Notes: generated by a model not told the origin, from the sequence alone. DNA of 33,773 nucleotides from Salinispira sp. (GCA_965226555.1 CBDDDG010000026.1:1-33773), one strand, 5' to 3'; shown: positions 522 to 29,264, numbered from the stretch's first letter. Program-made: numbers and translations.

Positions 522-522
522 C

Positions 523-10185: not shown

Positions 10186-10770
10186 ATGATAAAACCATTA
10201 GCCCTCATCCTGCTTCTCATGGGAAGCATATTCACAATTTCTGCAACCGGCTCGCGTGAGACCTTTGACCCCCACGCAGGAACTAACAGCAGTGTGGAAG
10301 AAATAAGCGGAATTCCGCTCTCAAACCTTCCGGCAGATTTCGCGTACCCCATCCAGTACAGTCCGGAAGAATGGCGCCGACTTCTCGGCGACGATTTCCA
10401 GTACCATGTATTGCGGGAAAAGGGCACTGAGCGTCCATGGTTCAATACATACAACGATAACAAACAAAAAGGTATGTATTATTCAGCAGCTACCGGACAG
10501 CCCCTCTTCAGTTCCGAAACAAAATATGACTCCCGAACCGGATGGCCGAGCTTCTGGGAACCCATAGACCCCGAGGCAGTACATCTGCTTCCGGACTATT
10601 CCCACGGAATGCTGAGAGTTGAGGTTGTGGATAGCCTGAGCGGTTCTCATCTTGGGCATGTCTTTCCCGACGGACCCGATCCGACCGGACTCCGCTACTG
10701 TTTGAATTCGGCATCGCTCATATTTGTTCCCGAAGGCGAAGCCCCCCCTGTTATCAATGTGGATATTTGA
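10186..10770 (+). CDS. msrB: Peptide-methionine (R)-S-oxide reductase with N-terminal signal peptide
   Basis: [31 protein letters not shown]...[24 protein letters not shown]; CxxC zinc ligands absent. Confidence 0.95.
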
Positions 10771-11530
10771 AAAATACTCGGGCATCGGTTTTTTGTATGT
10801 CATCTTCAGTAACAGGACGGGTCAGCGCCAAGCAGGCAAGCAGATGAGGACATCCGGGAATGGAGAAATTTGTTCCGCGTATTTCGGTTCCGTCTGCGGT
10901 ATGCAGCCATACATCATTCAGGCAGCGCAGCTCCATGGTACAGCTCAGCATATCTTCTCCGAGAAGTTTTATTACCGCTTCCTTTCGTGTCCAGAGGGTC
11001 ATAAAGCGTCGGCGCCGATCCTGCGCGCTCCCCGCCGCATACACATAGTTCCGCTCATCATCCTGAAAAAAATACCGGAGAATGGCATTCATTGCTTCGG
11101 GCTGCAGTTCACGATGAACACTCTCAATATCGACGCCAATCTCACTGCCAATCTCATTGGCAATCTCATTGGCAATCTCATTGGCAATTTCATCGCCCTC
11201 TGCTATGGCCAGTATAACGGCATCGGAGGTAAAACTAAGATTAAAACCGGTGTATATGCTCCCGTCCGCTCGAATAAGCTTCGGCTTCCCTCTCCGGCCC
11301 TGCGCAAGGGTATCGTTAGTACCCAGCGGAGCCATATCATTCTCCCTGAAATGGACATCCAATATCCGGCGGAGAAAAATGCGGCGCCGGAAGAAATTGT
11401 CATGATCTTTTTTCCGCAGAAATTGATGGTGATGTTTCGCTTCGCTCCGGGCAGCGAACTCATGCCGGGCAGCGAACTCATTAATGAACGATTGGGGAAT
11501 ACAGTCTGTCAGTGAGGGGAGAAAATACAT
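10754..11530 (-). CDS. 4'-phosphopantetheinyl transferase (Sfp/HetI type); start uncertain (11530 or 11587)
   Basis: GKPKL, FNLSFT, IGVDIE and [12 protein letters not shown] motifs. Confidence 0.85.
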
Positions 11531-11665
11531 GTTCACTACATGTGTATTGCCTTGGGCATGCCCTCGGGCATTTTTTCTTTGAAACATTCCTGCATGTATA
11601 GTACTCTATTTAGGTTCCTACAACAATATTTGGGACATGGAGAAACTTTTGAATTGGAGTATTTT

Positions 11666-12916
11666 GTGACTACACATAATAGACGAATAGTTATTACCGG
11701 ACTGGGAACAATTAATCCCCTTGGGTCTACAGTCGAAGAGTTTTGGAATAATTTATGTACAGGGAAAAGCGGAACTCGAAAAATTACCAATGTTAACATT
11801 GGCGACTACCATGTGCAGATTGCCGCTCAAACCGATATTCCCGATAATATCCGCGACTACTTCAAACAGAGAAAGATGGTAAGGCGTCTCGACCGCTACA
11901 TACTCTTCGGACAGTGCGCAGGCGCTCAGGCAGTACGCGATGCGGGACTCAGCGAATATCGCTTCCCGGAGCGTATAGGAGTACTTATCGGAACCGGAGA
12001 TGGCGGAGTCGGAACTCATTATCAGCAGATCAACAGAATAGCCAGCCACGGTATGTCGTCCGCAAGCCCCTTTTATGTGTCTTCTTCTGTTCCCGATACC
12101 TTAAGCGGTGTTGTGAGTATGGAAACAGGATTTACCGGCCCGAATTTTGCAATTAGTTCTGCCTGCGCCTCATCGAACCATGCCTTCGGTGTGGCATGTA
12201 ATATGATTGCCTGCGATATGGCCGATGTAATACTCACCGGCGGCAGTGAAGCGCCCATTGTTGAAAATTCCTTGGCTGCCTTTGGCCAAATAGGCGCCCT
12301 CTCAACGCGAAACGATGATCCTGAAACAGCCTCCCGCCCCTTTGACCGCGACCGTGATGGTTTCGTTATAGGAGAGGGCGCCAGTGTACTATGCCTTGAA
12401 GAACTTGAACACGCAAAAAAGCGGAAGGCGCATATTTATGCGGAAATAGCGGGCTTCGGCTTCACCTCCGATGCCTACGATCTTGTTGCCCCTCATCCTG
12501 AAGGAATCGGCGCCGCTCGGGCAATGCAGGAAGCCTTAAAAATGGCACAGTTGAATACCGGCGATATTGACCTCATTAACTGCCATGGAACATCCACACA
12601 GCTGGGCGATTTGGCAGAATTTGCTGCAGTAGAACGAACCTTCGGCGACCTCACCCCGCACATTCCTGTTCACAGCACAAAAAGCATGATCGGGCACTTA
12701 CTTGGAGCAGCCAGCGCCACTGAAGCAATCGCAGGCATCATGGCCTTTGAACGAAACATCATCCATCCAACCACCAATCAATTTAATCAGGATCCTGCAA
12801 TAGGCTACAATGTTGTCAAGGAAACAACCGAACGGCCGATTAACACCTTTGTTTCGAATTCCTTCGGCTTCGGCGGCCACAACGCCTGTGTGATCTTCAA
12901 AAGGTTCTCGGAATAA
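11666..12916 (+). CDS. fabF: Beta-ketoacyl-ACP synthase II
   Basis: GTG start after GGAG; RRIVITGLG, SACASS (Cys), HGTST, KSMIGH, SNSFGFGGHNA. Confidence 0.92.
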   Translation: MTTHNRRIVITGLGTINPLGSTVEEFWNNLCTGKSGTRKITNVNIGDYHVQIAAQTDIPDNIRDYFKQRKMVRRLDRYILFGQCAGAQAVRDAGLSEYRFPERIGVLIGTGDGGVGTHYQQINRIASHGMSSASPFYVSSSVPDTLSGVVSMETGFTGPNFAISSACASSNHAFGVACNMIACDMADVILTGGSEAPIVENSLAAFGQIGALSTRNDDPETASRPFDRDRDGFVIGEGASVLCLEELEHAKKRKAHIYAEIAGFGFTSDAYDLVAPHPEGIGAARAMQEALKMAQLNTGDIDLINCHGTSTQLGDLAEFAAVERTFGDLTPHIPVHSTKSMIGHLLGAASATEAIAGIMAFERNIIHPTTNQFNQDPAIGYNVVKETTERPINTFVSNSFGFGGHNACVIFKRFSE

Positions 12917-12968: not shown

Positions 12969-12969
12969 G

Positions 12970-13503
12970 TTAAAAAATAAGTGCTTCGCCGCTGGTTACA
13001 ACAGCAACCTTTCCGTTGACCAGAGCCTGCCCGATCAATGAAATGGAATATTCATCCATGAAGAGCTTTTGAGCGAGTATGTTCACGGTTACTCCCGGGT
13101 ATATGGGTTCAAGGTAGTATGCCTGAGCCTTGATCAGCCGGTTCGCTATTGGTTTTGCATCGGGCGCAATGTCGGTTCGCTGCTTCGCTTCAAAATAGTT
13201 CATGCAAAGGGCAAGCTGACCGATCATTTCCATAACAAAATTACCCGGATACAGCGGCAGATCGGGAAAGTGCCCCGCAAAAACGGGATCGGAGGGGTCC
13301 ATAAAGCGCTCACCGCTTATCAGCCCCTGTTCGAGATTGAGTCCGGTGAGCCTGTCCACAAAAAGAAGCGGAGAACGATGAGGAATGATTTTTTTGATAA
13401 ATTCCTGAGAATAATTGAGCTTAACAGGGAGGTCTGCCGGATCGAAAAGCGGTTTTTTTCTCTTTGATCGGAGGAGGCGATCTATTGAAGCCGGATCAGA
13501 CAT
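12970..13503 (-). CDS. FabZ/FabA-like 3-hydroxyacyl-ACP dehydratase (hotdog fold)
   Basis: IPHRSPLLFVD and FAGHFPDLPLYPG...EMIGQ motifs. Confidence 0.88.
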   Translation of the reverse strand: MSDPASIDRLLRSKRKKPLFDPADLPVKLNYSQEFIKKIIPHRSPLLFVDRLTGLNLEQGLISGERFMDPSDPVFAGHFPDLPLYPGNFVMEMIGQLALCMNYFEAKQRTDIAPDAKPIANRLIKAQAYYLEPIYPGVTVNILAQKLFMDEYSISLIGQALVNGKVAVVTSGEALIF

Positions 13504-14765
13504 TAGGTCTTCAGTCCCTTCACAATAACATCTTCAATGATACTGAGAGCCTCATCCATCATTTCCTTCGTAAACTGCGATGAAACAGATATACGGAAGC
13601 GCCGCAGATGAGCCGGCACCGCCGGATAATCAATGGGCTGGAGAAACAATCCGCGGAGCTGCATTTCTGCCGCAAACTGAAAGAGCTGGAGTCCGCTTGA
13701 ACCAATGATAATGGGTATTACTTGGCTTTCACAGCCGCCGATATTCAGGCCAAGATCCTCTAGGTTCCGCTTCATGTAATCGGTATTTTGCCACAGTTTA
13801 TCGCGAAGGGTAGAATCTCTTGTGGCAACCTCAATGGCCTTTATAAGTCCGGCTACGACAGGGGGGCTGGGCGCGCAGGAAAAATTCCATGCCGATGCAT
13901 AGCCCTTGAGATAACGGATAATCCGTTCGTTGGATGCAACAAACCCGCCAACACCGCCGAAGCTCTTACTGAGCGTTCCATAGGACATGCCGATTTTGTC
14001 TTCTAAGCCGAAGTGCTCACCAATTCCGCCGCCGTTCTTGCCGAACATGAGGGTTGAATGGGCCTCATCCATATAAATGGGCGCATTGTAGGCCTCCGAC
14101 AGAGGAACCATTTCAGGGAGTTTTGCAAGGGTTCCATCCATTGAGTACACACCCTCAAGGGCAATAATTTTGCGTTTGTGCTTATACTTTTCCAGCTTTT
14201 CTTCAAGACTCTTTGCATTGTTATGATCAAAAAAGTCTATTCGCGCGCCGGAGAGTGTCCCGCCGTCAATAATGCTCTTGTGGGCCTTTTCATCGAGAAT
14301 TATGACATCGCCCTTACGCAGAATTCCCTGAATGGCGCCGACATTACCCCCGTAACCGGAACTGAAAATGAGCGCGGCATCCTTTGTTTTGAGCTTTGCT
14401 ATTTTTTGCCCGAGTTTCTCATGAATGTCCAGAGTTCCTGAAACAATTGGCGCTCCCGATGAACTCAGTCCATATCGCTCCAACCCTTCTCTGGCAGCCT
14501 GAAGAACCTCAGGATGAGTGGACAGTCCGAGATAATTATAACTGGTCATGTTGATAATCTTGCGGCGCTTACCGTCAAGATTACTCAAAATTTCAGTTTG
14601 AGCGCTCGGAGCCTTGAGAAGTTGCTGGCTGGTGAAACTGAATGCCTGTTTGACAACAGGATCATTAATCCATTCTTCGAAATCTTCCGGAGGAGAAAGC
14701 GGATCAGGATTATCAGTAAAATGAAAATCGGCCAGATTAAAATCGGTAGCTTTATTTTTACCCAT
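13503..14765 (-). CDS. PLP-dependent alpha-oxoamine synthase (serine palmitoyltransferase/BioF/KBL family)
   Basis: SYNYLGL, FSSGY..N, HKSIIDG, EGVYSMDG, DEAHS, GTLSKSFG (PLP lysine), PAVP...RFRIS. Confidence 0.9.
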   Translation of the reverse strand: MGKNKATDFNLADFHFTDNPDPLSPPEDFEEWINDPVVKQAFSFTSQQLLKAPSAQTEILSNLDGKRRKIINMTSYNYLGLSTHPEVLQAAREGLERYGLSSSGAPIVSGTLDIHEKLGQKIAKLKTKDAALIFSSGYGGNVGAIQGILRKGDVIILDEKAHKSIIDGGTLSGARIDFFDHNNAKSLEEKLEKYKHKRKIIALEGVYSMDGTLAKLPEMVPLSEAYNAPIYMDEAHSTLMFGKNGGGIGEHFGLEDKIGMSYGTLSKSFGGVGGFVASNERIIRYLKGYASAWNFSCAPSPPVVAGLIKAIEVATRDSTLRDKLWQNTDYMKRNLEDLGLNIGGCESQVIPIIIGSSGLQLFQFAAEMQLRGLFLQPIDYPAVPAHLRRFRISVSSQFTKEMMDEALSIIEDVIVKGLKT

Positions 14766-14776
14766 GTGAAGCCTTT

Positions 14777-15019
14777 CTACTCAACATACTCCATGAATTT
14801 ATCGGCAAGACCATCAATGTTACCGATGTCTGCAAGTTCGGAACGGGGAATTTTAATATTCAGATCCCGCATGGAACAGCTGACTACTTCAATAATATCG
14901 AGGCTGTTTGCGCCATAATCCTTCATGGATTTGGAAATATCAATTTCATCCGTTTCAATATCATCAAGATTCTCGATAATATTCTTTTTGATCACTTCTA
15001 CTACTTTATCCTTAGACAT
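14777..15019 (-). CDS. Acyl carrier protein (AcpK/donor-ACP-like GANS motif)
   Basis: 80 aa, acidic, DYGANSLD phosphopantetheine site, GGAG RBS. Confidence 0.9.
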   Translation of the reverse strand: MSKDKVVEVIKKNIIENLDDIETDEIDISKSMKDYGANSLDIIEVVSCSMRDLNIKIPRSELADIGNIDGLADKFMEYVE

Positions 15020-15034
15020 ATATTCTCCTATATT

Positions 15035-15877
15035 TTATAAGGTTTCAGATTCGGAATGCTGAGCATTCTTTTGTTTTTCTTTCCAGGAAAGAAATCGTAT
15101 CATTGTATTATCCATAAACGGCAGCCCATAGTCAATATTAATAATCTGCCCATTCATGGCATCCAGCAATCCGCTGCATAAAGAAAGAACTGCCTTCCCG
15201 CATTCCTCCGGTGTAAGAACACTATCGGCGCCGACTAAGCCCTCATTCTCAAGAAAATCGAAAAATTCTTCACCAAATATGGCATTGAAACTTTCGGTTT
15301 TCACATTACCGAAACGAATAACATTAACTTTGCTGCCTTCCGTAAAAAGGTGGGCTGCCATATATTTACCGAAAAATTCGAGAAGCGACTTTGATGCGGC
15401 TACATAATCGTATCCCGGATAGAAATGATCCGGACCGTCGCTGGAAATGCCGAGAACTCGTTTCGGATATGCGCCGAAGAGTTTTTTAATTTTTCTGGTG
15501 TATTCGATCATCGGCCAGGTAGAATAATCGAAGGTTTTGTACAATGAGCGCTTTTTATAGTTATCCAGACTGCGCATGGTTGCGGCATAGCCGACATTTG
15601 AAATAAAGATATCGACTGAAGATGCAATTTTTTTTACTTCAGTAAGAAGCCTGTCTGTGTCTTCATCTACCGAAACATCGGCTTCAAGCAGAATAGGTTC
15701 GGGAGCGCCTCGGTCAGTAAAGCCCTTCTTCACTTCATTCATATCTGCGCTGCCCCACTTGTAGGTGAGAACTGTCTGTACCCCAGCCTGCGCAAGCTGC
15801 ATGGCAGAAGCAAGCCCGATACCCTTTGTTCCGCCGGTTATAAGGGCGGTCTGTCCCGATAAATCTATTGAAATCAT
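15035..15877 (-). CDS. SDR oxidoreductase, probable enoyl-ACP reductase (FabL-like)
   Basis: TGGTKGIG, SS.G, YPGYDYVAASK (Y-x6-K spacing seen in enoyl reductases), NGQIINIDYG. Confidence 0.75.
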   Translation of the reverse strand: MISIDLSGQTALITGGTKGIGLASAMQLAQAGVQTVLTYKWGSADMNEVKKGFTDRGAPEPILLEADVSVDEDTDRLLTEVKKIASSVDIFISNVGYAATMRSLDNYKKRSLYKTFDYSTWPMIEYTRKIKKLFGAYPKRVLGISSDGPDHFYPGYDYVAASKSLLEFFGKYMAAHLFTEGSKVNVIRFGNVKTESFNAIFGEEFFDFLENEGLVGADSVLTPEECGKAVLSLCSGLLDAMNGQIINIDYGLPFMDNTMIRFLSWKEKQKNAQHSESETL

Positions 15878-15887
15878 ACTATGAATA

Positions 15888-15926
15888 TCAGCATACTATA
15901 TCAGCATGAATACCGTCAATATGGTA
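15888..15926 (-). promoter_or_regulatory. Candidate promoter of the SDR-ACP-AOS-fabZ block
   Basis: TACCATA-TTGACG-N18-TATGCTGA; same architecture at 29302-29339. Confidence 0.45.
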
Positions 15927-15952
15927 TGCTGCGATTTTCCTCTCTTTCAATA

Positions 15953-15980
15953 CAAAGTTTTGCATTTTGCAAAACTTTGT
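15953..15980. repeat. Short family A palindrome
   Basis: CAAAGTTTTGC-ATTTT-GCAAAACTTTG. Confidence 0.8.
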
Positions 15981-16015
15981 ATTATCCTTGTCCGTTTTTC
16001 TGAAATGCTCGAATT

Positions 16016-16084
16016 TCATCTCCGCTGAGCTTGCCCTTGCTCAAGCCCTGCCCGCCATGGCTTATCTATAAGATCTACCAACAT
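16016..16084 (-). other. Small RpnS-like ORF (MLVDLIDKPWRAGLEQGQAQRR)
   Basis: GAGGAGG RBS; paralog of 2640-2720 at the same position downstream of an rpn gene. Confidence 0.5.
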
Positions 16085-16420
16085 ATGTTTTGCCTCCTCA
16101 GGATTTTCCTGCCGGCTGCATGGCAAGCCGGATGCCCGGACGCGCAGGCCGAGCAACACCAATTAATGCGATCCGTTCCGCAATGTCCGCATTTCCTCAT
16201 CGCTCAGCCCGGTAACATCCTGAATGTCATGGGCTGAAAATCCTTTGGAAAACATACTGCGGGCGTTTTTTCTCCGCTCCTCAATATGCCCCTCAGCGCG
16301 ACCCTTTGTGATTCCCTGCTCAAGACCTTCAACACGGCCTTTCAGAATGCCTTTCTCCATGCCTTGGTTGACAAACCAATCACTCATCTGAACTTTTTTC
16401 ATCATAACTTCTTCTCCTCC

Positions 16421-16548
16421 AGAAACTTTTGCATTGGAAAATTGTGCAGAGCACAATTTTCCAGTAGCAAAAGTTTCACATTTGGATGACTCTATGTGCT
16501 TAGCATTCTCGCATTTTGTAGAAAATTTTGCCTCAGGCAAAATTTTGT
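16421..16548. repeat. Composite family A element (128 bp) in rpn copy 2
   Basis: Long palindrome, TGTGCTTAGCATTCTC linker, short palindrome. Confidence 0.9.
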
Positions 16549-17061
16549 TTCGGGATTTATTTCCCTGTTGATTTTTTCAAAGCGTGTATCCAGTTTCAAG
16601 CCCTTCATATAGAGCAGAAGGTTCGGGATCATCTCGCGGGAATTCTCTGCGGGAAGCTCTTTCAGACACTTCGCAACCTTCCTCAAATCTTCATCACCTG
16701 TCTTACTGACTTTCCGCATAATATAGCACAGGCCTCCCCCTGTCAACACAACTCCGTCTGATCCCCGGGTAAACTCCTTCTCACTCATCCTATTCAAATC
16801 GACCATAACAGGCCTATTGAGAACCTTTGGCCTTGCAAGATATTTTTCCATCATTGCATACAATTTTTCCGGTATGTGTGTATGCACATCCCCTGAACTG
16901 TGGAAACTGAGATCTCCTTCCCATAGTGCTTCGCCATGATACCACAGCACCAGAACAAGAAGATCGGTCTGCGCCTGAAATGTTTTGCTGTTTATGAGGG
17001 CTCTCTGGTATTTATCGAACTGTTCGCTGACCTTCGGATCACACGCGCTTTTGTGCTCAAT

Positions 17062-17189
17062 ACGAAAGTTTTGCTACCGGAAATTGTGCTTGCACAATTT
17101 TCCAAGGCAAAACTTTCTATACCTTGAGAGAATCAAACATATAGATGAGAGAATCCTCATTGGAAAATTTTGCTTTGCAAAATTTTCAG
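17062..17189. repeat. Composite family A element (about 128 bp) in rpn copy 2
   Basis: Long palindrome, divergent linker, short GGAAAATTTTGC-TTT-GCAAAATTTTC. Confidence 0.85.
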
Positions 17190-17387
17190 AAGGAGAACAA
17201 TTCGTAAACCGTCGAATTCCCCTTTGAGGGGAATAATGAGAATGAGATCGCAGAGTACCTCACGCCCTTTGTCAACGTAGATGGTGTTTTCGATGCGAAT
17301 AGTATCTAAATCCATAATGTTAACGATGTTTTCTGGAAAAATTGTCCGTGGAATATCGGCTGCCGCCTCGGGGGTGCCATAGATACT

Positions 17388-17545
17388 TACAGAAACTTTT
17401 GCATTGGAAAATTGCGCTTGCGCAATTTCCAGTAGCAAAAGTTTCACATTTGGATGACTCTATGTGCTGAGCATTCTCGCATTTTGTAGAAAGTTTTGCA
17501 TTGGAAAATTGTGCAGAGCACAATTTTCCAATAGCAAAACTTTGT
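17388..17545. repeat. Composite family A element (158 bp) in rpn copy 2
   Basis: Two long palindromes flanking a linker nearly identical to that at 16477-16520. Confidence 0.9.
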
Positions 17546-17954
17546 CTTAAAAGCAATATCATGGATATTGTATCCGGCATTACTCATATATTCCTCCTGT
17601 TATATCTATAACGGGTAAAAAGTCATTTTTAATTGTGTTTTTTGAAAGAATTTTGCAAAATTTGTGAATTTTTTTTCGGGGGAAGGATCGGGAATGCGGG
17701 TTAGTGGACGGGAAGGCTGCGCGCGTATGGTTGAATTGGCCCCTGTATTATAGGGTGTATTGACGCATGCTCCCGGGAACAATGCTCCGGGCGAGGTTTT
17801 TGTTGAAGTATGAGTATATAAAGTCCCTGAATATCCGGGGATTTTCAAAAACATATTTCCAGCGTGTACCATTCCTATATATTTTCCGCTCATACTATAT
17901 AGACGGGTAAAATATGAACGGTGAATATGAGAAAGTTTTTCAAAAAGTTTTATT

Positions 17955-18060
17955 ACAGAGTTTTGCTACTGAAAATTTTGCTCTGCAAAATTTTCCAAGG
18001 CAAAACTTTCTACAAAATGAGAGTATGCTAAGCACAAAGACAGCATTCCACATGAGATAT
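17955..18060. repeat. Family A palindrome plus linker (reverse orientation); near-duplicate at 19474-19580
   Basis: CAGAGTTTTGCTACTG...CCAAGGCAAAACTTTCTACAAAATGAGAGTATGCTAAGCACAAAGACAGCATTCCACATGAG at both loci. Confidence 0.85.
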
Positions 18061-18214
18061 TGATCAGCCCGGACGCATGGGCGAACCGGTTGCTTGGGCG
18101 AGCAGCGCCGACCAGCCCCCGTCTCAGCAACAGTCGCATGGGCGAGCAGCGCGGAGCGCGACCAGCCCCTATCCCCAGCAACAGTCGCATGGCGCGCAGG
18201 CCGAGCGGCGCCAA

Positions 18215-19262
18215 TTACTGCGATCCGTTCCGCACTGTTCGCATTTCCTCATCGCTCAGCCCGGTAATCCTCTGAACAGCCTCGGTCGACAACCCTTCCA
18301 AAAACATACTGCGGGCCGTTTCTCGAATGCCTTCCTGCCGACCTTTCAGAATGCCCTTCTCCATGCCCTGCTCAAGACCCTCAACACGGCCTTTCAGAAT
18401 GCCTTTCTCCATACCCTGCTCAAGACCTTCAACACGGCCTTTCAGAATGCCTTTCTCCATACCCTTCGCAATGCCTTCCCTGATAAAGGGGTTGGTAATA
18501 TTATATGTCCGCATACTGTTTTCTCCTCCATGGAACAGTTCCCTGTCAATTTTCTCAAACTGTTCATACAGTCCCAGATTCTTCATATATCCCAGCACAC
18601 CCTCGGCCAGGCAATTAAATTCATGTGAAGACAGACCGTTCAGGAGCCGCGCAACCTCTTTCAGCCCCTCAGCATCCATCTCATTATCTCGCATTATATA
18701 CCACAACGCAGTTGATGTATATCGTTTTCCATCAGAGCGCAATGCCAACTGCTTTTTGTCCATTCGCCTCAGATCGCGCACAATGTACGACACTTTCACC
18801 CTGACATCCACCGTGCCTTCGGTCATGGATTCAGAACTTTGCTTTTCATGCGAACTGTAAAATGTGAGTGGGAGGTTCCATTCATTTTTTCCGTGGTAGA
18901 GCAGCAGTATATAGATAGCATCATTTTCATTGTACACATCGCTGTTTCTGAGGGCATATTGATAGTCATCAATCTGAGTGAGAATGTGTTTGTGCTGGTA
19001 GCTTTTATGTTCAATAATAAATAGGGCCTTCCGCTCGGGGTCTGACAGGAAGGGGGCGCTGACAACGAGAGCGCAGTGAAGGTTCTTTTTTCCTGTAATG
19101 TAGCTGGGGGTTTCAATGCGGATTTTGTCTAAATCCAGCTTGGCAAGCGCCGTATCCTCACAGAACAGCCACAGCAGGTCGGGAATCATCAGGGGGGTTT
19201 TTGTAGGCGATCTTGAAGGCTATGTCGTGGATTTGTCCTGTGCTCTGGGATGATTTTTTCAT
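18215..19262 (-). pseudogene. Rpn/YhgA family gene copy 3, frameshifted in a C6 run near the 5' end; internal small ORF 18514..18215 intact
   Basis: AGGAGG RBS, MKKSSQSTGQIHDIAFKIAYKNP then one extra base (G6 at 19192-19197 on + strand); FIIEHKS, LLYHG, GMEKGILKGRVEGLEQ repeats; internal GGAGGAG-N8-ATG. Confidence 0.85.
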
Positions 19263-19728
19263 ACTGTTCCTCCTACATCTATAACGGGTAAAAAGTCATT
19301 TTTAACTGTGTATTTGGAAAGAGTTTTGCAAAATTTGTGAATTTTTTTCGGGGAGTCGGGAATGGGGGGGGCTGGTATGCTCTGTGTTGATATATTTTTT
19401 GCTCATACCATATAGACGGGTAAAATATAAACGGTGAATGATAAAATGAGAAAGTTTTGTAAAAAGTTTTATTACAGAGTTTTGCTACTGGAAATTGTGC
19501 TTGCACAATTTTCCAAGGCAAAACTTTCTACAAAATGAGAGTATGCTAAGCACAAAGACAGCATTCCACATGAGATATTGATCAGCCCGGACGCATGGGC
19601 GAACCGGTTGCTTGGGCGAGCAGCGCGGAGCGCGACCAGCCGTCTTGATCAAAAAATGCAGGCACGGATTTTTCCATGCCTGCCTGAGTTGAATTGCCAT
19701 TTTTCAATAACCGCTACGGGTTGTGAAA

Positions 19729-21555: not shown

Positions 21556-21784
21556 ATATGTTACCTCCAAGGTATTAAAAACTTTTGAATAACTCCATTA
21601 TATCTGCCGGGAGTCTTTTTTCCACGCAGAAAAAATTATTCATCGGTTCTTAAGATTCAGAATACACTATTCTCCACCCTTTGTATACCCAAAACCTAAA
21701 AATCATTCTTTTTTTCATCTTTTTTCATTATTTTCCTCATTTCCGGCAGCAGTACCGCGGGCACAGCTATCCTGCTTGTCCAAG

Positions 21785-21995
21785 AGCGCGCTAAGATTCT
21801 GCCAAGATTGCAGCAACAGCACTTTGAACATCATAACCGGATGATATCCTTTCGCGCCCATCGAATTGTTGTTGATAGCACAGAGCATATCCCCAATTTC
21901 CTTCCAATTGATCAGTTCATACAGGCTATCGAAGCGTTTCAGCGCTTTACTTTCCTGAATACCCTGATTGATCAGCGATCCATGATGTTCTTTCC
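21785..21995 (-). pseudogene. IS5-family transposase N-terminal fragment
   Basis: Minus-strand translation LYELINWKKIGDML...GAKGYHPVMMFKVLLLQSWQNLS fits the IS5 N-terminal (DUF772-type) pattern. Confidence 0.7.
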
Positions 21996-22001
21996 AATTA
22001 T

Positions 22002-22802
22002 CTATCCCGCATAGAGATCATCGATGATCCGCTTTGTTTCAGGATAGGCAAAACTGATGGAATGCATCATATCTTCCTGAAGGCGGGCATCAATAAGAAG
22101 TTTTTTCTTTGCTGCGGAAAGGCTGTATTTAAGGAGCTGTACCGATTTGGGGTTTTTTTCGGCAATGTGCAGGGCAATATCACGCGCTTTGGCAAGAACT
22201 TCAGATCGGGGAATAATATAATTGATATTCGTATTTTTGAGGGCAAGTTCCCTTCCCCGGTAGCGTTTGCCGCTCAGCATCATCTCATTGGCAACATAGG
22301 GACCCACGGCTTCTCTGAGAAGGGTTGTTGTTCCCATGCCCGGAGTAAAGCCCATATTCATAAAAACTGTTCCGTAGCGGGATTCTAATGCAGCTATAAT
22401 GATATCTGAACAAAGCGCAATAACGAATCCTCCCCCCATCGCATGTCCTTCCATGGCAGAAATAATGGGAAAACGACACGCGATGAGGCGTTCGGAAATG
22501 AGCAGATCCCGTACAACCAGCTTACCGCCGGCAAGCTCCATGAGCGATTCCTTATCGGCGCCGCCGGAAAATGTCGAAGTCAATCCTCGAAGAATGAGAA
22601 CCCTCGGCTGTATTTCCTCAACAGCATCAAGAACAGTTAAAAAGGCAGCAACAAAGGCGTGTGAAAATACATTCTCACCCGCCACGTCATGCATATAGAT
22701 GACAGCAATATCGGAATCATCCATAGCGAATGAGACCCTGCCGTATTTTGCGCACAGCTCCTGCGCGGAACGGTTTTCGTATTCTTCGGGAAGAGCTTTC
22801 AT
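22002..22802 (-). CDS. Enoyl-CoA hydratase family, ECH2/PksI-like decarboxylase of a beta-branching cassette
   Basis: NVFS, FSGGAD, AMEGHAMGGG, FMNMGFTPGMG.T, YRGREL, EDMMH..SF. Confidence 0.88.
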   Translation of the reverse strand: MKALPEEYENRSAQELCAKYGRVSFAMDDSDIAVIYMHDVAGENVFSHAFVAAFLTVLDAVEEIQPRVLILRGLTSTFSGGADKESLMELAGGKLVVRDLLISERLIACRFPIISAMEGHAMGGGFVIALCSDIIIAALESRYGTVFMNMGFTPGMGTTTLLREAVGPYVANEMMLSGKRYRGRELALKNTNINYIIPRSEVLAKARDIALHIAEKNPKSVQLLKYSLSAAKKKLLIDARLQEDMMHSISFAYPETKRIIDDLYAG

Positions 22803-23875
22803 AGGATTCCTTTTGCAGCAGCGGCGGGGCTGGGGGTGGCGGGAGACAGCGCAATAGCGCTGGCTGATTTCATCGCCGCGGCGGGGTTGGGCATCGCGGC
22901 GGGGTTGGGGCTGGACAGCGCAGCAGCGCGGCCGGAAAGCGGGCCAACCGGTTTAAAGCGTTGAAACCAGGCAGGGGTCTGCCCTGAGTGAAATGCTTCA
23001 AGCCCTTCCCGTACCCGAGGCTGCCTCATATGTTCCAGCAGCGTTTGTTCGGCTTTTTTTCGGCTTTCGGAAAAATCGGCATTGAGCGTTTCGGCAAAAA
23101 ATGTTTTTGCTGCTTTGAGAGCATGTGGTTCAGCTCTCATCATTGTCCGAAACATTGTGCGGAGGCATTTTTCCAAATCCGATGCAGAATATACCTGATC
23201 TAAAAATCCAAACTGCCGGGCATCTGCGGCATTGATCCGCGCCGCTGAAAGTACAAGATACCGGAAACGTTGAGGCGACATGCGGAAACCCGACATATAC
23301 GGCAATACATTGTAGGGGACAAGTCCGAAGAGCACTTCGGAAAGCTCAACACTTGCCTCTTCCGTCCCAATGACAATATCGCAGGCGGCGGCAAGACCCA
23401 CCCCGCCGGCCTTTACAGGGCCTTCAAGTAAGGCGACAACAGGTTTTGGCGCATTCATAATGGCAGATAAAAGTTCAGAATACAGGGTAACTCCTCGTGA
23501 ACGCTCTGCTTCGTTTTTTTCTCGCGCGGAGGATGGGGGCGACGCAGAGGGAGCGGGCGGGGGCGGAGCTGCGGAGGATGGGGGGGGCGCTGGGGGAGCG
23601 GGCGGCGCAGCGGAGGCCTCAGTTTCAAGGCTCACTTCCAGTCCTTCAAGGTCCATTCCAAGGCAGAAGGACTCTTCACCGGAGCGAATCATGAGGATTT
23701 TCGCTTCTTCATCTTCTATTCCACGGGAAAGGGCAGCTTCCATTTCAGAGAGGCTGAGCGGATTGAGCCGGTTACCCCTCCCATCGGCACAATGGATGAT
23801 GCCGAGCCCTGAATCGCAATGGTAGCGTACTTTTTTGCGCGTATCATGTGCTGGATGAGGCGCTGGATCAGGCAT
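22799..23875 (-). CDS. Enoyl-CoA hydratase family, ECH1/PksH-like dehydratase, with Pro/Ala-rich insert and tail
   Basis: FCLGMD, GPVKAGGVGLAAACDIV, LSEVLFGLVP. Confidence 0.88.
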   Translation of the reverse strand: MPDPAPHPAHDTRKKVRYHCDSGLGIIHCADGRGNRLNPLSLSEMEAALSRGIEDEEAKILMIRSGEESFCLGMDLEGLEVSLETEASAAPPAPPAPPPSSAAPPPPAPSASPPSSAREKNEAERSRGVTLYSELLSAIMNAPKPVVALLEGPVKAGGVGLAAACDIVIGTEEASVELSEVLFGLVPYNVLPYMSGFRMSPQRFRYLVLSAARINAADARQFGFLDQVYSASDLEKCLRTMFRTMMRAEPHALKAAKTFFAETLNADFSESRKKAEQTLLEHMRQPRVREGLEAFHSGQTPAWFQRFKPVGPLSGRAAALSSPNPAAMPNPAAAMKSASAIALSPATPSPAAAAKGIL

Positions 23876-25094
23876 GCTCATATCTTCGATACCAATCTTT
23901 CACTTCCTTCAGCACAAGCAGACCGCTTCCCTCGTAATGGGTTTTGTACCAATTATTCAGAATAGAAAGATCGGGGGTGAAGTTCGGATTTTCGACATAG
24001 GTGTCGCGAAGTTTTTCCACCGATTCATATTCCGCAACAGTACATTTACGGCGCGTGTCGAGTTTCGCGTCAATTTTCATTTTGCCAAGCTCGGCGCGGG
24101 CTCCCGGGAGTATTCGACCTGAATAAAATTCACCAATGGCGCCTGAGCCATAGGCAAAGAGCGCAATATCCTTACCCTCCACATCGGGGGCATGGTTCAC
24201 CAGAGCGGCCAGACAGGTAAGGTTTGATGTGCCATAGGTGGAGCCTACTCGCTTGCTGTATGCCAGCGCGGGAATAACTCGTTTCTCAAAGTCGGCCCGT
24301 AAATCTGCCTTGTTTTTTGGTGAATGCAGGCGGGTGAGTGTTCGGTGCGCTTGGAAGGATATGCCCGGAAAGGGGGTGTGGTACACGAAATAGGAAAAAT
24401 CCTTGTCAAAATCTACCTTACCGCCGACCTGTTCCATATAATGCTCATAGGAACCTTCAGCCGCATCCATGTATGAAAAGAGACTCACTTCGTTATTGCC
24501 GACTTCCGCAAGAGCAGAGGGACGAAAGGTATCATATACATCTGTTGTCCAAGTTCCCTTCCTGTCGAGATAATATTCGATAATTTTGGGAGTATCGGAA
24601 ACCAGAGCTGCTGCCGCGCAGCCGCCCATAACAAACTCCTGAACAGTATTCAGATGCTGCCGTGAGAAATCTGAGGCAATAACCAGAGCTTTTTTTCCCT
24701 TATTCAGACCGGAAGCAATCCAGTTTAAGGCAGTATCAAGAGCTGCAACCCCGCTGTAACAGGCAAATTTTGTTTCATAATTACGGACCTGAGGGTTCAA
24801 GCCCAGGGCGCTATGGACATTGGTCGATATCGGTTTTCCAAAATCAACTGAACCCTCGGTTCCGACAATGAGCATGCCAATGTCATCAATATCTTCCTTA
24901 CTGAGCATGGACATGGCAGCATTGGCAGCCATGGTTACCGTGTCTTCCCATGGCGGATTCAGACTTCGAGATTCAATAAGAAAATCTTTTTTAATCTGTT
25001 CAGGATCCTTTCCCCGAACTCTTGCCAACTCTCCCTGATCTAAAAACATAGACGTACCATATACATTTAGTTTTTCAATACCAATTGATCGCAT
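23868..25094 (-). CDS. HMG-CoA synthase-like enzyme (PksG-type beta-branching HMGS)
   Basis: EDTVTMAANAA, GTEGSVDFGK, ETKFACYSG, DTFRP, SLFSY, YHTPF, YGSG..GEFYS. Confidence 0.92.
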   Translation of the reverse strand: MRSIGIEKLNVYGTSMFLDQGELARVRGKDPEQIKKDFLIESRSLNPPWEDTVTMAANAAMSMLSKEDIDDIGMLIVGTEGSVDFGKPISTNVHSALGLNPQVRNYETKFACYSGVAALDTALNWIASGLNKGKKALVIASDFSRQHLNTVQEFVMGGCAAAALVSDTPKIIEYYLDRKGTWTTDVYDTFRPSALAEVGNNEVSLFSYMDAAEGSYEHYMEQVGGKVDFDKDFSYFVYHTPFPGISFQAHRTLTRLHSPKNKADLRADFEKRVIPALAYSKRVGSTYGTSNLTCLAALVNHAPDVEGKDIALFAYGSGAIGEFYSGRILPGARAELGKMKIDAKLDTRRKCTVAEYESVEKLRDTYVENPNFTPDLSILNNWYKTHYEGSGLLVLKEVKDWYRRYEHA

Positions 25095-25108
25095 AAAAAT
25101 TCCTCCAT

Positions 25109-25852
25109 TCATGGCGCATAGGTAAAGGCGCCTGATATCCGTATATTTTCTCCCGATATAAATCCTGCCTCATCCGAACACAAAAAATATACTGCCGCAG
25201 CTATTTCCTCGCCTGTCCCGACCCTCTTTGCGGGGCAGTGTTCAAGCCAGTATTTGCTCAGATATTCATTCATGTGTTCGTTTGTCATGGATGTCGGCAC
25301 GAAACCAACGGTAACAATGTTTGAGGTAATGCCCTTCTTGCCGTACTCCTTTGCAAGAGTCATACTCAAACCCTGAAGCCCCGATTTTGCAGTCGCATAA
25401 TTTATCTGACCGCTGCTGCCCTCAGCAGAAAGGCTCGACATGTGAATGAACGATCCCTTTTTCTGGCTCAGAAAATGAAACAGAAAGGCCCGTGAAACCA
25501 GAAAGGGCGCGGTAAGATTCACCGACAGAACTTCATTCCAGTCCTCATTACTCATGAGCGCCGCCACATTATCTCTGACAGTCGCGGCATTATTCACAAC
25601 CGCCCGCACATCGGGAAAGTCGGCAATAACCTGATCACACACTGTTTCAATATCCTTTTCTTCTTTCATATCAAGCTGATATGAACCGACTTTTATATCT
25701 GAGTCGATTTCTGCCGCCATTTTCAGTGTTTCGTCTGCCGCCGCTTTATTCGATGCATAGGTAAATGCCGCATTCCACCCTTCCTTTACAAAGCGGAGTA
25801 CAATAAAACGGCCAAGGCCGCGGGAACCGCCGGTAACAAAAATAGTGCTCAT
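25109..25852 (-). CDS. 3-oxoacyl-ACP reductase (FabG-like SDR)
   Basis: TGGSRGLG, VNNAA..RD, GQINYATAK, ISGENIRISG. Confidence 0.88.
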   Translation of the reverse strand: MSTIFVTGGSRGLGRFIVLRFVKEGWNAAFTYASNKAAADETLKMAAEIDSDIKVGSYQLDMKEEKDIETVCDQVIADFPDVRAVVNNAATVRDNVAALMSNEDWNEVLSVNLTAPFLVSRAFLFHFLSQKKGSFIHMSSLSAEGSSGQINYATAKSGLQGLSMTLAKEYGKKGITSNIVTVGFVPTSMTNEHMNEYLSKYWLEHCPAKRVGTGEEIAAAVYFLCSDEAGFISGENIRISGAFTYAP

Positions 25853-27135
25853 ACTCCATCCCACTTTTTAATGAGGCTGCAGCAATTAAGGCCGCCGAAA
25901 CCAAATGAATTTTTAAGCATATGCGTTACGTTCCAATTGACAGGCCCGTCCGCGCATACATCGAAATCAATTTCAGGATCCTTTTCTTCTACGTTTATTG
26001 TTGGATGTAAACGATTGTTATTCATCTGCATGATTCCGCCAATAGTTTCAACAAGGGGGCTGGCCCAGCAGGTATGTCCAAGCATCGACTTCGGCGCATT
26101 AATTTTCATGTTCTTTGAATGTTCACCAAAGACCGATTTCAACGCTGCCACTTCCTGTCTGTCGCCCGCCGGAGTTCCTGTCGCGTGGCAATTAACATAT
26201 TCAACCTGCTCGGGGCGGACACCCGCGTCATCGAGGACTTTCTGCATAACCCAGGCCTGATATTCGGCTCCGGGCATTGGGAGATGGTTCGCATTGGCAT
26301 TTGCGCGGACTGCAAGAATTTCTCCGTAAATTTTTGCCCCTCTCGCAACAGCCGATTCAAGGGTTTCAACAATCAGAGTTGCCGATCCATGACTGTACAC
26401 AAATCCGTTTCTTTTCATGTCGAAGGGACGGCTGGCCTTCTCAGGTGTTTTGTTAAGTTCCGGGTCCATGACAACGGAATTAATAATAACAGAAGCTTGA
26501 ATATCCGGTTCAGCGACATCGAATAGAGCGCCGGTAACAACTGCCCTTTCAACTTCGCCTATGCGTATGTCGCGAACAGCGTCCCGCAGAGCCAGATTCC
26601 CACTCGCGCAGGCGCCGCCAATGGTATAACAGGGGCCATGCACCTGCAGAACCTCAGAAATGAGCGCTGGTATGTTATTATCAATGGCTTCAACAGAACA
26701 GAGCGGATCCATATATTCCGGTTCTTCTTCAAACTGCCTTCCAAGGGCGTGAATGTAGCGGGAATTCAGATTATGACCGGCAACTACGACCATAGTCATG
26801 TAGGGATCAATGCTCTCCTTTTCCAGTCCGGCATTGAGCCAAGCATTTTGGGCGGTAAGCACCGACATTCGCGCTGAGAATGTCGCATACTTGAATAAGC
26901 GCCGGACGCGCTTAAATTTTTCCAGACCGATGTGATCCTTAATACGCTCAAGCGCCGCTTTTGTATCATAATCTCCGAGATCACCGCCAATTTTGTTTTC
27001 ACATTGGGAAAGGTCAAGCGATTTCCATTCTTTTACACCTGACTTACCCGCAAGGAGGTTCTGAAAATACTCCTCAACCGTATCTCCCAGAGGATTGATG
27101 GTGGCCATGCCGGTAATTACAACTCGTGTATTCAT
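25849..27135 (-). CDS. Standalone ketosynthase (PksF/FabF-like) retaining the catalytic Cys
   Basis: RVVITG, TIGGACASGN, ASRPFD..RNGFV, NCHATGT, KSMLGH, NSFGFGG. Confidence 0.9.
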   Translation of the reverse strand: MNTRVVITGMATINPLGDTVEEYFQNLLAGKSGVKEWKSLDLSQCENKIGGDLGDYDTKAALERIKDHIGLEKFKRVRRLFKYATFSARMSVLTAQNAWLNAGLEKESIDPYMTMVVVAGHNLNSRYIHALGRQFEEEPEYMDPLCSVEAIDNNIPALISEVLQVHGPCYTIGGACASGNLALRDAVRDIRIGEVERAVVTGALFDVAEPDIQASVIINSVVMDPELNKTPEKASRPFDMKRNGFVYSHGSATLIVETLESAVARGAKIYGEILAVRANANANHLPMPGAEYQAWVMQKVLDDAGVRPEQVEYVNCHATGTPAGDRQEVAALKSVFGEHSKNMKINAPKSMLGHTCWASPLVETIGGIMQMNNNRLHPTINVEEKDPEIDFDVCADGPVNWNVTHMLKNSFGFGGLNCCSLIKKWDGV

Positions 27136-27154
27136 AGTAACTCCAATATATACA

Positions 27155-28099
27155 TTACCTTACAAGTTCCTGTATGGCTCCGAGGGTTCCGGCTGGTTTT
27201 GCCCGTAATCCTTTATAAAAGGATTTCCATAAACCACTGAGTACCTTACCGGGGCCAACTTCCAATACTATATCATGTTCTTTACCTGTTATAATTTTTT
27301 CATCTAAAAGATACTGCTCAGATGCTACCCATTGTACCATAGATACAATCTGTTCACCCGCGCGTTTTTTGGCCTCGGAGGCATTCTCAAGGGGCCGCGC
27401 TGTTACATTTGAAATGAGCGGAATACGGGGGTCATTGAAGGGAAACCCTGCAATGCGCTTTTCAAATTCTTTTCGGGCATCTTCCAGAAGAGGAGAGTGA
27501 AAGGGTCCGCTTACTCTCAGGCGCACAACCTTCATGGCGCCCGCTTCGGTGAGGGCTTCTTCGGCTTTTTCAAGCCCTTCGGCCGTTCCCGCAAGAACAA
27601 TTTGGGTTGGGGAGCTGTAGTTTGCAATGAAAACGGAGGAAATGGGCTCAACACAGTCCCGGACTTCTTCAAAAGAAAGACCAAGTACCGCCGTCATGCC
27701 GGAGGGACCCTCGGGAGTATCTGCCTGACGGGCTCCTTTTTCCATGAGTTCACCGCGGATGGCAACCACTCGGAAGAGTGTCTCGGTATCCAAAACGCCT
27801 GCCTCATGCAGCGCTGCATATTCACCAACTGAAAAGCCAAGGACAGCGGCAGGTTTCAGTCCCCGTTCACGCAGAAGTGCCGCCGCAGAAATGTTAACAA
27901 GGCTTATTGCTGCCTGAGTATTATCGGTCGACTTCAGATCATCCTCTGTGCCGTTGAACAGCAGATCGGCCATATCTTTCCGCAACACCGCGTTGGCGAC
28001 TGCGAAGAGCTTCCGCACCGTCTCACTGTGCTCATACATATCCTTTGCCATGCCCGGATACTGGGCACCCTGACCGGGAAATAAAAATACTGTGCTCAT
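27155..28099 (-). CDS. fabD: Malonyl-CoA:ACP transacylase
   Basis: FLFPGQGAQ, TQAAI, GFSVGEY, RGELM, LRVSGPFHS, EVGPGKVL. Confidence 0.9.
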   Translation of the reverse strand: MSTVFLFPGQGAQYPGMAKDMYEHSETVRKLFAVANAVLRKDMADLLFNGTEDDLKSTDNTQAAISLVNISAAALLRERGLKPAAVLGFSVGEYAALHEAGVLDTETLFRVVAIRGELMEKGARQADTPEGPSGMTAVLGLSFEEVRDCVEPISSVFIANYSSPTQIVLAGTAEGLEKAEEALTEAGAMKVVRLRVSGPFHSPLLEDARKEFEKRIAGFPFNDPRIPLISNVTARPLENASEAKKRAGEQIVSMVQWVASEQYLLDEKIITGKEHDIVLEVGPGKVLSGLWKSFYKGLRAKPAGTLGAIQELVR

Positions 28100-28100
28100 G

Positions 28101-29264
28101 TCAATTCCTTTTCATAGAAAAAACTTTTTCATACATTCTGTGTGTGCGATAGTGTTCTGCTCCCCAATTTTCCAGAAGATTACGCAACGCGGTATTTTCT
28201 TCAAGAATCCAGCTGAATTCAGCAGAATTGTATCCCTTTCCTTCGCCCTTTGTGTAGAGTTCATAAATGAAAGCAGCATCAATACCTTTATTGTGATATT
28301 CCCTGCGAACCCCGAAGGCCGCAATGCGCAACTGCTGTGCTCTGCTCTTTGCCCTGAGAAGTTTGAAAACCCCGAAGGGGAGGAGCCTGCCGTTCAGAGT
28401 ACGAAGTGTGTCGTTCAAATTGGGGATGGGAAAGGCAAAACCAACCGGAACATTATCAACATAGGCAAAGAGCGTAACTTCAGGATCAAGTACGAGTTTG
28501 AGATTTTTTGCGAGCTGTCTGAATTCTTCTTTATTCCACGGGACATAGCCCCAGTTCTCCGCCCAGGCCTCATTCCATATTTCCCGCACAACATCCACCA
28601 TACTATCCCATTCCTTCATACGTGTCCGCCGTATTTCGACATTGTTCCGCTTGAGGGCTATTTTTGTAACACGGATAATCTTTTCACTCAGCCTGAGGCG
28701 GGTATCCATTCTGTATGAATACAGATCCGCAGCCTTGCGATATCCCGCATCCGCATAAAAACTGCCATAGTATGGCGGTGAATAGGGCATTTCAATAACG
28801 GGGGGAATTTCAAAACTATCAATTTGGTTGCCGATCGATCCATTAATATTTCCATTGACCGGCCCAATAACACGCTTCATGCCCCGTTTGCGGAGCCAGA
28901 TTTCAGCCTGCGAAAAGAGGGCTGCCGCAACCTGCGCATCGTCAATGCACTCAAAGAAGCCGACAAATCCGGTTCCTGCCTGCTGATGCGCGCAATAATC
29001 AGCATCTACCATGGCAGCAATTCTCCCAACGACACTGCCATGTTTGCCGCCATTTTTGCTGCCATGTTTGCTGGCAAGAAATACCTGAAGCTCCGCGTGC
29101 TCATAGAATCCATTATGTGCGCGGTCAAAAATGTGCTTAATATCCATATTAAGCGGGGGCACCCAGGCATTATAGACCCTCCTCTGCCCCCGATATACCA
29201 GATAGGGAAGTTCAATAAACTGTTTAATGTCGTTTTTTGATTCTAGGGGATAGATATCTACCAT
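28101..29264 (-). CDS. GNAT-fold N-acyltransferase of the YghO / bacterial ceramide synthase-like family
   Basis: FIELPY.VY...WVPPL, VVGRIAA, GFVGFFECIDD, AE.WL..RGM..VIGP, MPYSPPYY, NEAWAENWGYVP, SWILEEN. Confidence 0.75.
   Translation of the reverse strand: MVDIYPLESKNDIKQFIELPYLVYRGQRRVYNAWVPPLNMDIKHIFDRAHNGFYEHAELQVFLASKHGSKNGGKHGSVVGRIAAMVDADYCAHQQAGTGFVGFFECIDDAQVAAALFSQAEIWLRKRGMKRVIGPVNGNINGSIGNQIDSFEIPPVIEMPYSPPYYGSFYADAGYRKAADLYSYRMDTRLRLSEKIIRVTKIALKRNNVEIRRTRMKEWDSMVDVVREIWNEAWAENWGYVPWNKEEFRQLAKNLKLVLDPEVTLFAYVDNVPVGFAFPIPNLNDTLRTLNGRLLPFGVFKLLRAKSRAQQLRIAAFGVRREYHNKGIDAAFIYELYTKGEGKGYNSAEFSWILEENTALRNLLENWGAEHYRTHRMYEKVFSMKRN

Follow-up and report, generated by a model that had tools for sequence, protein, structure and literature searches.

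A spirochaetal operon joining a beta-branching cassette to an alpha-oxoamine synthase: a candidate source of branched ceramide-type lipids

Salinispira sp. carries an operon in which the enzymes of fatty acid synthesis are combined with a beta-branching cassette, an alpha-oxoamine synthase (AOS) and a GNAT-type N-acyltransferase. The operon lies in a stretch of 33,773 nucleotides (hereafter the window; GCA_965226555.1 CBDDDG010000026.1:1-33773), which is the entire contig C26 of genome G000, an assembly of 2.98 Mb that is 93.5% complete. We found that the operon is real and conserved, and it is apparently undescribed. Its product is likely to be a branched ceramide-type lipid, whatever the position of the branch. 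In the version that we favour, held with rather less than even confidence, an iso-methyl-branched chain would be made from acetate via acetoacetyl-acyl carrier protein (ACP) and would end in a ceramide-type membrane lipid. If this is true, a polyketide beta-branching cassette, so far described only with polyketide synthases (PKSs), enters membrane-lipid synthesis on one ACP and with a KS0-type ketosynthase (KS) that keeps its cysteine. Moreover, sphingolipids are predicted in spirochaetes and an uncharacterised AOS clade is defined.

An 11-gene operon and its distribution

All the genes that the original prediction had placed on this DNA are intact open reading frames of the expected families, and their tight coupling in two minus-strand blocks stands, with gaps of -14 to +19 bp within blocks. 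The first block runs from 29264 down to 22002 (gaps of +19 to -14 bp). It starts with a tandem-GNAT N-acyltransferase, a homolog of YghO and of the ceramide synthase bCerS (28101..29264), assigned by its YghO match and its fold, whose ATG at 29264 is served by a ribosome-binding site. The malonyl transacylase FabD (27155..28099; TIGR00128, 248 bits against a cut-off of 261) comes next, followed by a KS0/PksF-like KS with a Cys-His-His triad (25849..27135; best NCBIfam match PRK07103) and the ketoreductase FabG (25109..25852; best match TIGR01830, YxxxK motif). The block ends with the branching enzymes: an ACP-type hydroxymethylglutaryl synthase (HMGS) with a Glu-Cys-His triad (23868..25112), a PksH-like ECH1 dehydratase with a Pro/Ala-rich insertion (22799..23881; 37% to Bacillus velezensis BaeH over 135 aa, nearest models PRK07468 and PRK07112, below cut-off) and a PksI-like ECH2 decarboxylase (22002..22802; NF005496, 242.5 bits, above the cut-off of 215).

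The second block (15877-12970, minus strand, gaps of +15 to -1 bp) starts with a gene that had been predicted to encode a short-chain dehydrogenase/reductase (SDR). A reductase gene is indeed present, and it is better identified as a FabL/FabI-type enoyl-ACP reductase (ENR; 15035..15877), since its best NCBIfam match is FabL, below cut-off, and its motif is Y-x6-K. Then come a CurB/AcpK-like ACP with the sequence GANSLD (14777..15019), which is the sole ACP of the operon and one of two in the genome, a pyridoxal phosphate-dependent AOS of a distinct clade (13503..14765), the only AOS found in the genome, and the dehydratase FabZ, assigned by family match (12970..13503). On the plus strand, a cluster-linked, elongating FabF (11540..12916; TIGR03150, 491 bits against a cut-off of 494; likely start GTG 11666) is convergent with FabZ. 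A phosphopantetheinyl transferase (PPTase) of the Sfp/AcpT type (10754..11587, minus strand; PF01648) is divergent from FabF, which it also adjoins in relatives.

The two blocks are separated in the window by 6,124 bp (15878..22001). They are normally one 11-gene operon, which is split here by a lineage-specific insert outside the pathway. In 10 out of 15 regions from 13 relatives, the identical 11-gene order is contiguous (L025, among the 10, has frameshifts), and the remaining five regions end at contig edges. The association of these genes is thus beyond chance. Furthermore, the distance between ECH2 and the ENR does not exceed 164 bp in any of the 62 loci holding both genes, out of 105 loci examined. 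In sequencing run X1 both blocks have a similar depth of about 9-10.5; the order around the insert rests on the assembly, as none of the X1 contigs listed spans it in full.

Close HMGS homologs occur in 7/7 family relatives and in 6/33 genomes of the same order. At the class level, 301 Spirochaetia genomes were compared and HMGS matches were found in 42. One of these, G291, was excluded because its canonical cassette adjoins a modular PKS, leaving 41 carriers against 260 other genomes. Related genomes and loci are not independent by kinship, and all co-occurrence counts given here are descriptions rather than tests. The AOS clade is present in 40 of the 41 carriers and in one of the 260 others. 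Hence, the expectation that the two blocks would be found together in relatives holds, both in these counts and in the contiguous operons. We also gathered 80 metagenome loci by HMGS alignment, several of them close kin. ECH2, ENR, ACP and AOS are all found in the 29 loci, some again close kin, with at least 4.5 kb downstream. Likewise, KS and FabG are present in all 27 loci with enough upstream DNA, and FabD is adjacent in 10 of these.

FabF is convergent with FabZ in many relatives, and this second KS is kept beside spirochaete operons. Named carriers include Spirochaetota metagenome-assembled genomes, the spirochaete endosymbiont of Olavius algarvensis and Nannocystis radixulma (L041), which is a cultured, named carrier of a myxobacterial variant. 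Among Myxococcota, 6/201 genomes match; the gene set of their loci is the same, except that FabF is usually not adjacent and the ENR is usually present twice. In Bradymonadales-type loci (L036:4577-11763, L038, L039), a FAAL-ACP-KS protein is found with FabG, ENR, a GANS ACP, an AOS of the same clade and FabZ. These loci are without HMGS and ECH genes, and HMGS was not found in 4/4 Bradymonadales-type draft genomes.

The original prediction had seen no modular PKS in the window. We found neither a modular PKS nor an acceptor ACP domain in this genome or in the closed relatives G004 and G006, and a modular PKS partner for the cassette was rejected on these grounds. The genome codes for four stand-alone KSs, two ACPs, one FabD and one AOS, with FabD and AOS both in the operon. 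Similarly, no long KS frame and only two ACPs were found in G004 and G006, and the operon FabD is the single PF00698 match in each of five family genomes out of five. The lack of a modular PKS, the presence of only two ACPs and the location of the only FabD in the operon make the cluster look like membrane-lipid metabolism. LpxC was not found in any of the 41 carriers, which points the same way; this count covers carriers only, with no contrast to non-carriers, and LpxC is lacking in many spirochaetes.

The branching enzymes and the AOS

The operon holds an ACP-type HMGS with the Glu/Cys/His triad and the ECH1 and ECH2 pair, as in a beta-branching cassette. The separate acceptor ACP on a PKS is missing, the only other ACP of the genome being a housekeeping one. 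The best PDB matches of the HMGS are, in this order, CurD, PksG and MvaS, and in the tree it sides with the ACP-type enzymes, away from the mevalonate HMGS of the same genome (contig C22). As CurD accepts acetoacetyl, this match counts for the iso version. In the beta6-beta7 loop of the HMGS, a hydrophobic EFV(L/M)G takes the place of the EPTQG-like motifs of mevalonate enzymes. The length of this loop was considered as a marker of acceptor size and rejected: it is 22 residues here and in mevalonate enzymes and 32 in BaeG, but 23 in a canonical PKS-linked HMGS.

The assignment of the KS as PksF/KS0 has to be revised. Its sequence resembles KS0 enzymes; its motif GGACASG, however, keeps the catalytic cysteine, with no change to serine. 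This cysteine is present in 56/56 complete motifs among 63 KS frames, and a control KS0 (L200) has serine. Thus, we rejected the canonical, condensation-incompetent KS0 role. In the alignment, the KS has histidine at the position of E. coli FabF I108, where a bulky residue shortens the acyl pocket.

The GANS ACP had been taken for the ACP of the cassette. Its likeness to CurB, its nearest relative, is confirmed, and a role as donor only is not: the donor motif DRAEII is replaced by DIIEVV, so the donor arginine is absent. As the sole ACP of the operon, retained in the Bradymonadales variants that lack HMGS, this protein is probably the chain carrier and not merely the acetyl donor. Branching on one ACP has a precedent, because CurD can take acetoacetyl on its donor ACP as acceptor, according to the available text of PMC11522927.

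The AOS does not group with BioF or Kbl, which agrees with the original prediction. In quick trees, its clade (SH-aLRT 99) lies inside an Spt and PigH branch (95-97) that excludes Kbl, BioF and HemA, and a BioF/Kbl clade was rejected narrowly (p-AU 0.037). In these trees, which include no characterised Bacteroidota Spt, the clade is about as close to PigH-type enzymes as to Spt (SH-aLRT 86-90). The best match by both sequence and fold is the serine palmitoyltransferase of S. multivorum. No BioF or Kbl cut-off is passed; the highest NCBIfam scores are to BioF/Kbl-family models, below cut-off. The catalytic set is present (K267, H162, D233/H236, R391). Cys297 takes the position of an Ala in Spt and of Lys281 in SulA, and a sulfonolipid synthase (SulA/CapB) was rejected for this reason. 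In the alignment, the AOS shares the Ala of the ThAOS V79A variant, whose substrate range is broadened. A sister group of AOSs with 39-45% identity (L042-L105), which shares the FSC motif, was found in Gemmatimonadota, Acidobacteriota, Bacteroidota and Bacillota. Its genes are stand-alone, without genes for a fatty acid synthase (FAS), and neither of the two members that were tested passes any NCBIfam AOS model.

We also modelled the complex between the ACP and the AOS. The score was 0.39, against 0.00 for the best control, with runs agreeing to at least 91% and a partner pLDDT of at least 81. The mark used for this score is reached by 116/157 solved and 2/215 mismatched pairs, and at 0.60 or below there are only 18/157 solved pairs together with both mismatches. 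The predicted fit is therefore weak.

A ceramide-type pathway and its alternatives

We propose the following pathway. The gene set, its conservation, the intactness of the catalytic motifs and the homologies are observed, and all of the chemistry is inferred. The PPTase would activate the GANS ACP and FabD would load malonyl onto it. The KS0-like KS, retaining its cysteine, would decarboxylate and prime itself, giving acetoacetyl-ACP. HMGS, ECH1, ECH2 and the FabL-type reductase would then convert this through HMG-, methylglutaconyl- and methylcrotonyl-ACP into isovaleryl-ACP, the donor and the acceptor being one type of ACP. Isovaleryl-ACP would be extended by FabF, FabG, FabZ and the ENR to a chain of iso-C15 to iso-C17. 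The AOS would join this iso-acyl-ACP with an amino acid, probably serine, to give a 3-keto long-chain base, which the YghO/bCerS-type GNAT would N-acylate. Finally, an unlinked epimerase-type reductase and an Scs7-like hydroxylase would complete a (2-hydroxy)ceramide for the envelope. We favour the iso version because one ACP, a KS with a short pocket, a second, elongating FabF and a simple programming all fit it. In addition, an HMGS specific for C4 would explain how an iterative system introduces a single branch.

Several findings point to a ceramide-type product. As had been predicted, the GNAT is a homolog of YghO and bCerS: it has 35% identity to E. coli YghO over 379 aa (E 2e-69), which predicts N-acylation. 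The available text of PMC9386255 lists yghO as a homolog of the Caulobacter N-acyltransferase gene aca (CC_1154). The model of the GNAT (pLDDT 90) has tandem GNATs as best fold matches; by sequence, neither a PDB relative nor an NCBIfam model match was found. The nearest homolog is a Salinispira sp. protein with 97% identity. At E<=1e-69, the GNAT is present in 37/41 carriers and 23/260 other genomes. The adjacency of ACP and AOS mirrors that of acpR and spt (PMC9386255, in the text available) and counts for a ceramide identity.

Genes outside the operon also bear on this. The check for a CerR homolog, which the original prediction had called for, gave a partial answer: the genome holds epimerase candidates, one on C22 with 26% and one on C16 with 23% identity to E. 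coli ECD_02852, and the family is broad. The C16 candidate has 39% identity to an epimerase family linked to the cluster. The C22 epimerase-family reductase is convergent with an Scs7/FA2H-like hydroxylase (G000:C22:181881-183607; L226:4882-6608), whose only PDB relative is the yeast ceramide hydroxylase Scs7 (E 2e-25) and whose family occurs in 20/41 carriers and 6/260 others. Among the genes that recur next to the operon, a flippase-like PF03706 protein and a KDSR-like SDR are each encoded in 13 loci and an epimerase in 9; glycosyltransferase genes recur there too. In two loci from spirochaetes without the cassette (L197, L212), a gene of the GNAT family forms a GNAT-epimerase-Spt triplet, in which the Spt-like gene is of the conventional kind.

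Salinispira pacifica, the cultured type species, has a major unidentified aminolipid, C16:0 2-OH and 11.7% iso-C15:0, as well as anteiso-C15 and iso-C14, in the available description (PMC4511686). If the type strain carries the operon, its product would be a candidate for this aminolipid and for the C16:0 2-OH.

Some side observations concern the same functions. In G004, which is without the Scs7-like gene, an OlsC/LpxO-like hydroxylase adjoins the operon PPTase (L011:19203-20000) and is a possible alternative 2-hydroxylase. Some operons have a KDSR-like SDR and a stand-alone PF00198 acyltransferase of the E2/CAT fold beside them (L035:1158-3013, L163:6023-6934, L217:10115-12037). Four genomes with no YghO-like match (G526, G366, G375, G323) have this PF00198 protein, which may thus act as an N-acyltransferase in its stead; in G081, both are missing.

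On the other hand, some results weigh against a ceramide-type product. The AOS is not sister to proteobacterial Spt and passes no NCBIfam Spt cut-off (314/640 bits for the CFB model, 257/500 and 223/670). Moreover, its pocket has GAP for GSR, HKS for HAS and FSC for FTA/FSA. Because of these failed cut-offs and altered positions, the amino acid may not be serine. Of the 27 informative metagenome loci, only 3 have the GNAT next to the operon, and in 4/41 carriers it is missing or its match is weaker than E<=1e-69. Its family is also common in the class, with 138/301 genomes matching at E<=1e-20. The cluster-type epimerase, in turn, was found in only 17 of the 41 carriers. Other points bear on the iso version in particular. 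Of seven Myxococcota loci, six have no adjacent FabF and the majority have two ENRs, and myxobacteria reportedly own CoA routes to isovaleryl already. In addition, an E1alpha/beta-FabH starter module is present in some carriers (G003, G006; broken in G004).

In G006, this module is a single protein of 1126 aa, in which the E1 alpha and E1 beta parts of a 2-oxoacid dehydrogenase are fused with FabH (L233:4071-7451); G003 has a split form (L234). The fusion is, by its domains, a possible dedicated branched-starter module. Strong matches to a leucine-derived starter route were found in 5/41 carriers besides the G006 fusion; this count covers carriers only and is neutral for the iso version.

It is possible, if somewhat unlikely, that the same ceramide-type pathway places the branch late. 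A preformed C12-C14 chain would be extended on the special ACP and beta-methylated near its carboxyl end, giving the 5-methyl or mid-chain base of the original prediction, or this would be repeated to give an isoprenoid-like chain. The Bradymonadales-type module, where FAAL-ACP-KS would load a ready fatty acid, works as an elongation unit in those loci, and the FabF-less Myxococcota form, mostly with one KS and two ENRs, fits as well. So do the standard branched-starter module of some carriers and the hydrophobic EFV(L/M)G of the HMGS loop. Against it, a late branch requires that an iterative system be programmed for chain length, and the I108 site of the KS is His. The second KS is also conserved beside spirochaete operons, and in 36/41 carriers nothing matches the E1 starter module strongly (>=59%). 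A bolder proposal, which we consider doubtful, is that a single-ACP primary FAS with a re-armed KS0 writes methyl branches, possibly in a repeating, isoprenoid-like pattern, into the interior of a sphingoid base that the new AOS clade makes. Such a new class of branched sphingolipids would replace lipid A in about 1/7 of Spirochaetia genomes and in some myxobacteria, including sponge and gutless-worm symbionts.

The AOS might instead use Gly, Ala or a larger amino acid. The product would then be an aminoketone or amino-alcohol lipid of the 1-deoxy type or of a non-sphingoid kind, or else a small molecule that is secreted, perhaps not acylated by the GNAT. The altered pocket residues are invariant across the clade, including the Ala found in ThAOS V79A, the PigH-type branch is about as near as Spt, and the GNAT is not always present. 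Nevertheless, we regard this as distinctly unlikely. The Scs7-like, KDSR-like, epimerase, flippase and glycosyltransferase genes track the operon, and the Cys at the SulA Lys281 site argues against cysteate. Furthermore, the two nearest characterised groups, Spt and PigH, both use serine.

An improbable reading is that the cassette mainly feeds branched fatty acids to glycerolipids, with the AOS and the GNAT co-transcribed and acting on unbranched chains. The cell's only FabD is in the operon, which fits. AOS, however, tracks HMGS nearly one to one and directly follows the special ACP. A pattern that includes anteiso-C15 and iso-C14 usually derives from amino-acid starters. Both are found in the very species whose iso-C15:0 content would support such feeding (PMC4511686, in its available part). 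Finally, we give hardly any credence to the idea that the cassette helps a modular PKS elsewhere and that the AOS is a BioF/Kbl housekeeping enzyme. The incomplete assembly and the best, below-cut-off NCBIfam scores of the AOS would allow it. Modular KS and ACP domains are nonetheless missing here and in both closed genomes, the tree excludes Kbl and BioF, and G004 has a separate Kbl-type gene. In G291, the only genome with a PKS-linked cassette, HMGS is divergent, KS0 is of the Ser type and the ACP has DRSEII.

Known systems and surrounding DNA

Our ceramide-type pathway has its closest counterpart in the AcpR-Spt, aca (bCerS, YghO) and epi (CerR) genes of Caulobacter crescentus and E. coli BL21(DE3), as given in the available texts (PMC9386255, PMC11087976). 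Both have a special ACP directly upstream of the AOS and a full-length YghO-family acyltransferase, and the present genome has candidates for the epimerase-type reductase. Here, however, the ACP is CurB/AcpK-like, with 18% identity to E. coli AcpR, and is loaded by a dedicated FAS and a branching cassette; a homolog of AasR was looked for in the genome and not found, and the AOS forms a separate clade with a different pocket. With the curacin CurB/C/D/E/F and bacillaene AcpK and PksF/G/H/I sets (PMC11522927, available text), the operon has in common the ACP-type HMGS, ECH1, ECH2, a donor-type ACP and a KS0-class KS. It differs from them in having no modular PKS or acceptor ACP, in the retained Cys and in DIIEVV for DRAEII, and ENR, FabG, FabZ, AOS and GNAT are built in. 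An AOS acting on acyl-ACP is also known from SulA, a cysteate acyl-ACP transferase (PMC9304779, available text), and from PigH/RedN, but here Cys297 replaces Lys281, and PigH, which lies on a branch of its own, forms pyrroles and is fused to an ACP. Altogether, the cluster would work like an AcpR-Spt-bCerS pathway fed by a curacin-like branching cassette, outside the canonical cassette and the curated Spt families.

Fogacin, from what Sato et al. are said to have described in 2019, is an aromatic polyketide of a type II PKS with beta-alkylation machinery and pairs of KS and chain length factor. Beta-branching on discrete type II enzymes is thus shared, and the present set differs in being fully reducing, FAS-like and ending in an AOS. 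Myxococcus xanthus reportedly has a de novo isovaleryl-CoA pathway, AIB, that is CoA-bound and uses a CoA-transferase-like decarboxylase. An HMG-type route from acetate to an isovaleryl starter would be common to both if the iso version holds, whereas here it would be ACP-bound, based on ECH2 and wired to a sphingoid synthase.

Our literature search found no description of the combined cluster; the proteins may be listed, as Spt/bCerS homologs, in the supplement of the primary bCerS paper (Nat Chem Biol 2022), or in those of PMC11334938. The latter, a recent survey of sphingolipid producers among marine bacteria, does not mention spirochaetes in its main text, as available. Likewise, the terms 'sphingo' and 'fatty acid' are absent from the main text, as available, of a genome survey of sponge spirochaetes (PMC12478362).

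Stretches 90-99% alike across the operon were found in two runs labelled cave metagenome, from one study, and in one labelled sponge metagenome; no RNA run was among the holders listed. Because of these close relatives in a sponge-labelled run and of the operon in the Olavius algarvensis symbiont, some branched sphingolipids of invertebrate extracts could be of bacterial origin. The idea of lipids credited to the host is possible; it is not the explanation of the cluster, since the operon is common in other lineages too. No match to the PlsX, AasR or POR_N families was found in the 93.5% complete assembly of G000.

The insert between the blocks contains intact and remnant transposase genes of the Rpn type and a gene for an FN3+DUF285 lipoprotein. 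It also contains a palindromic repeat (window 16421-16531, about 110 bp) that is found genome-wide, with 472 BLAST matches on 24 of 26 contigs; the Rpn-type genes have 206 matches on 19 contigs. A promoter and terminator scan was uninformative (38 promoter-like sites against 28.7±5.4 in shuffled sequence, and 25 terminator-like sites against 20.8±4.7). At the start of the window (15-1686), an EcoRI-type adenine methylase is followed by a GmrSD_N+HNH nuclease, resembling a restriction-modification pair. An IS5-family transposase split over two frames lies at 8589-9853, and a protein of 7-residue QMKETDR coiled repeats, without a Pfam match, at 4736-5623. Lipoprotein-like genes at 5984-8248, 19729-21570 and 29613-31229 have FN3+FG-GAP, FN3+DUF285 and beta-propeller-like repeats, respectively. 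Expansions of such genes are typical of sponge symbionts, and the FN3/DUF285 DNA matches 20 contigs of G000.

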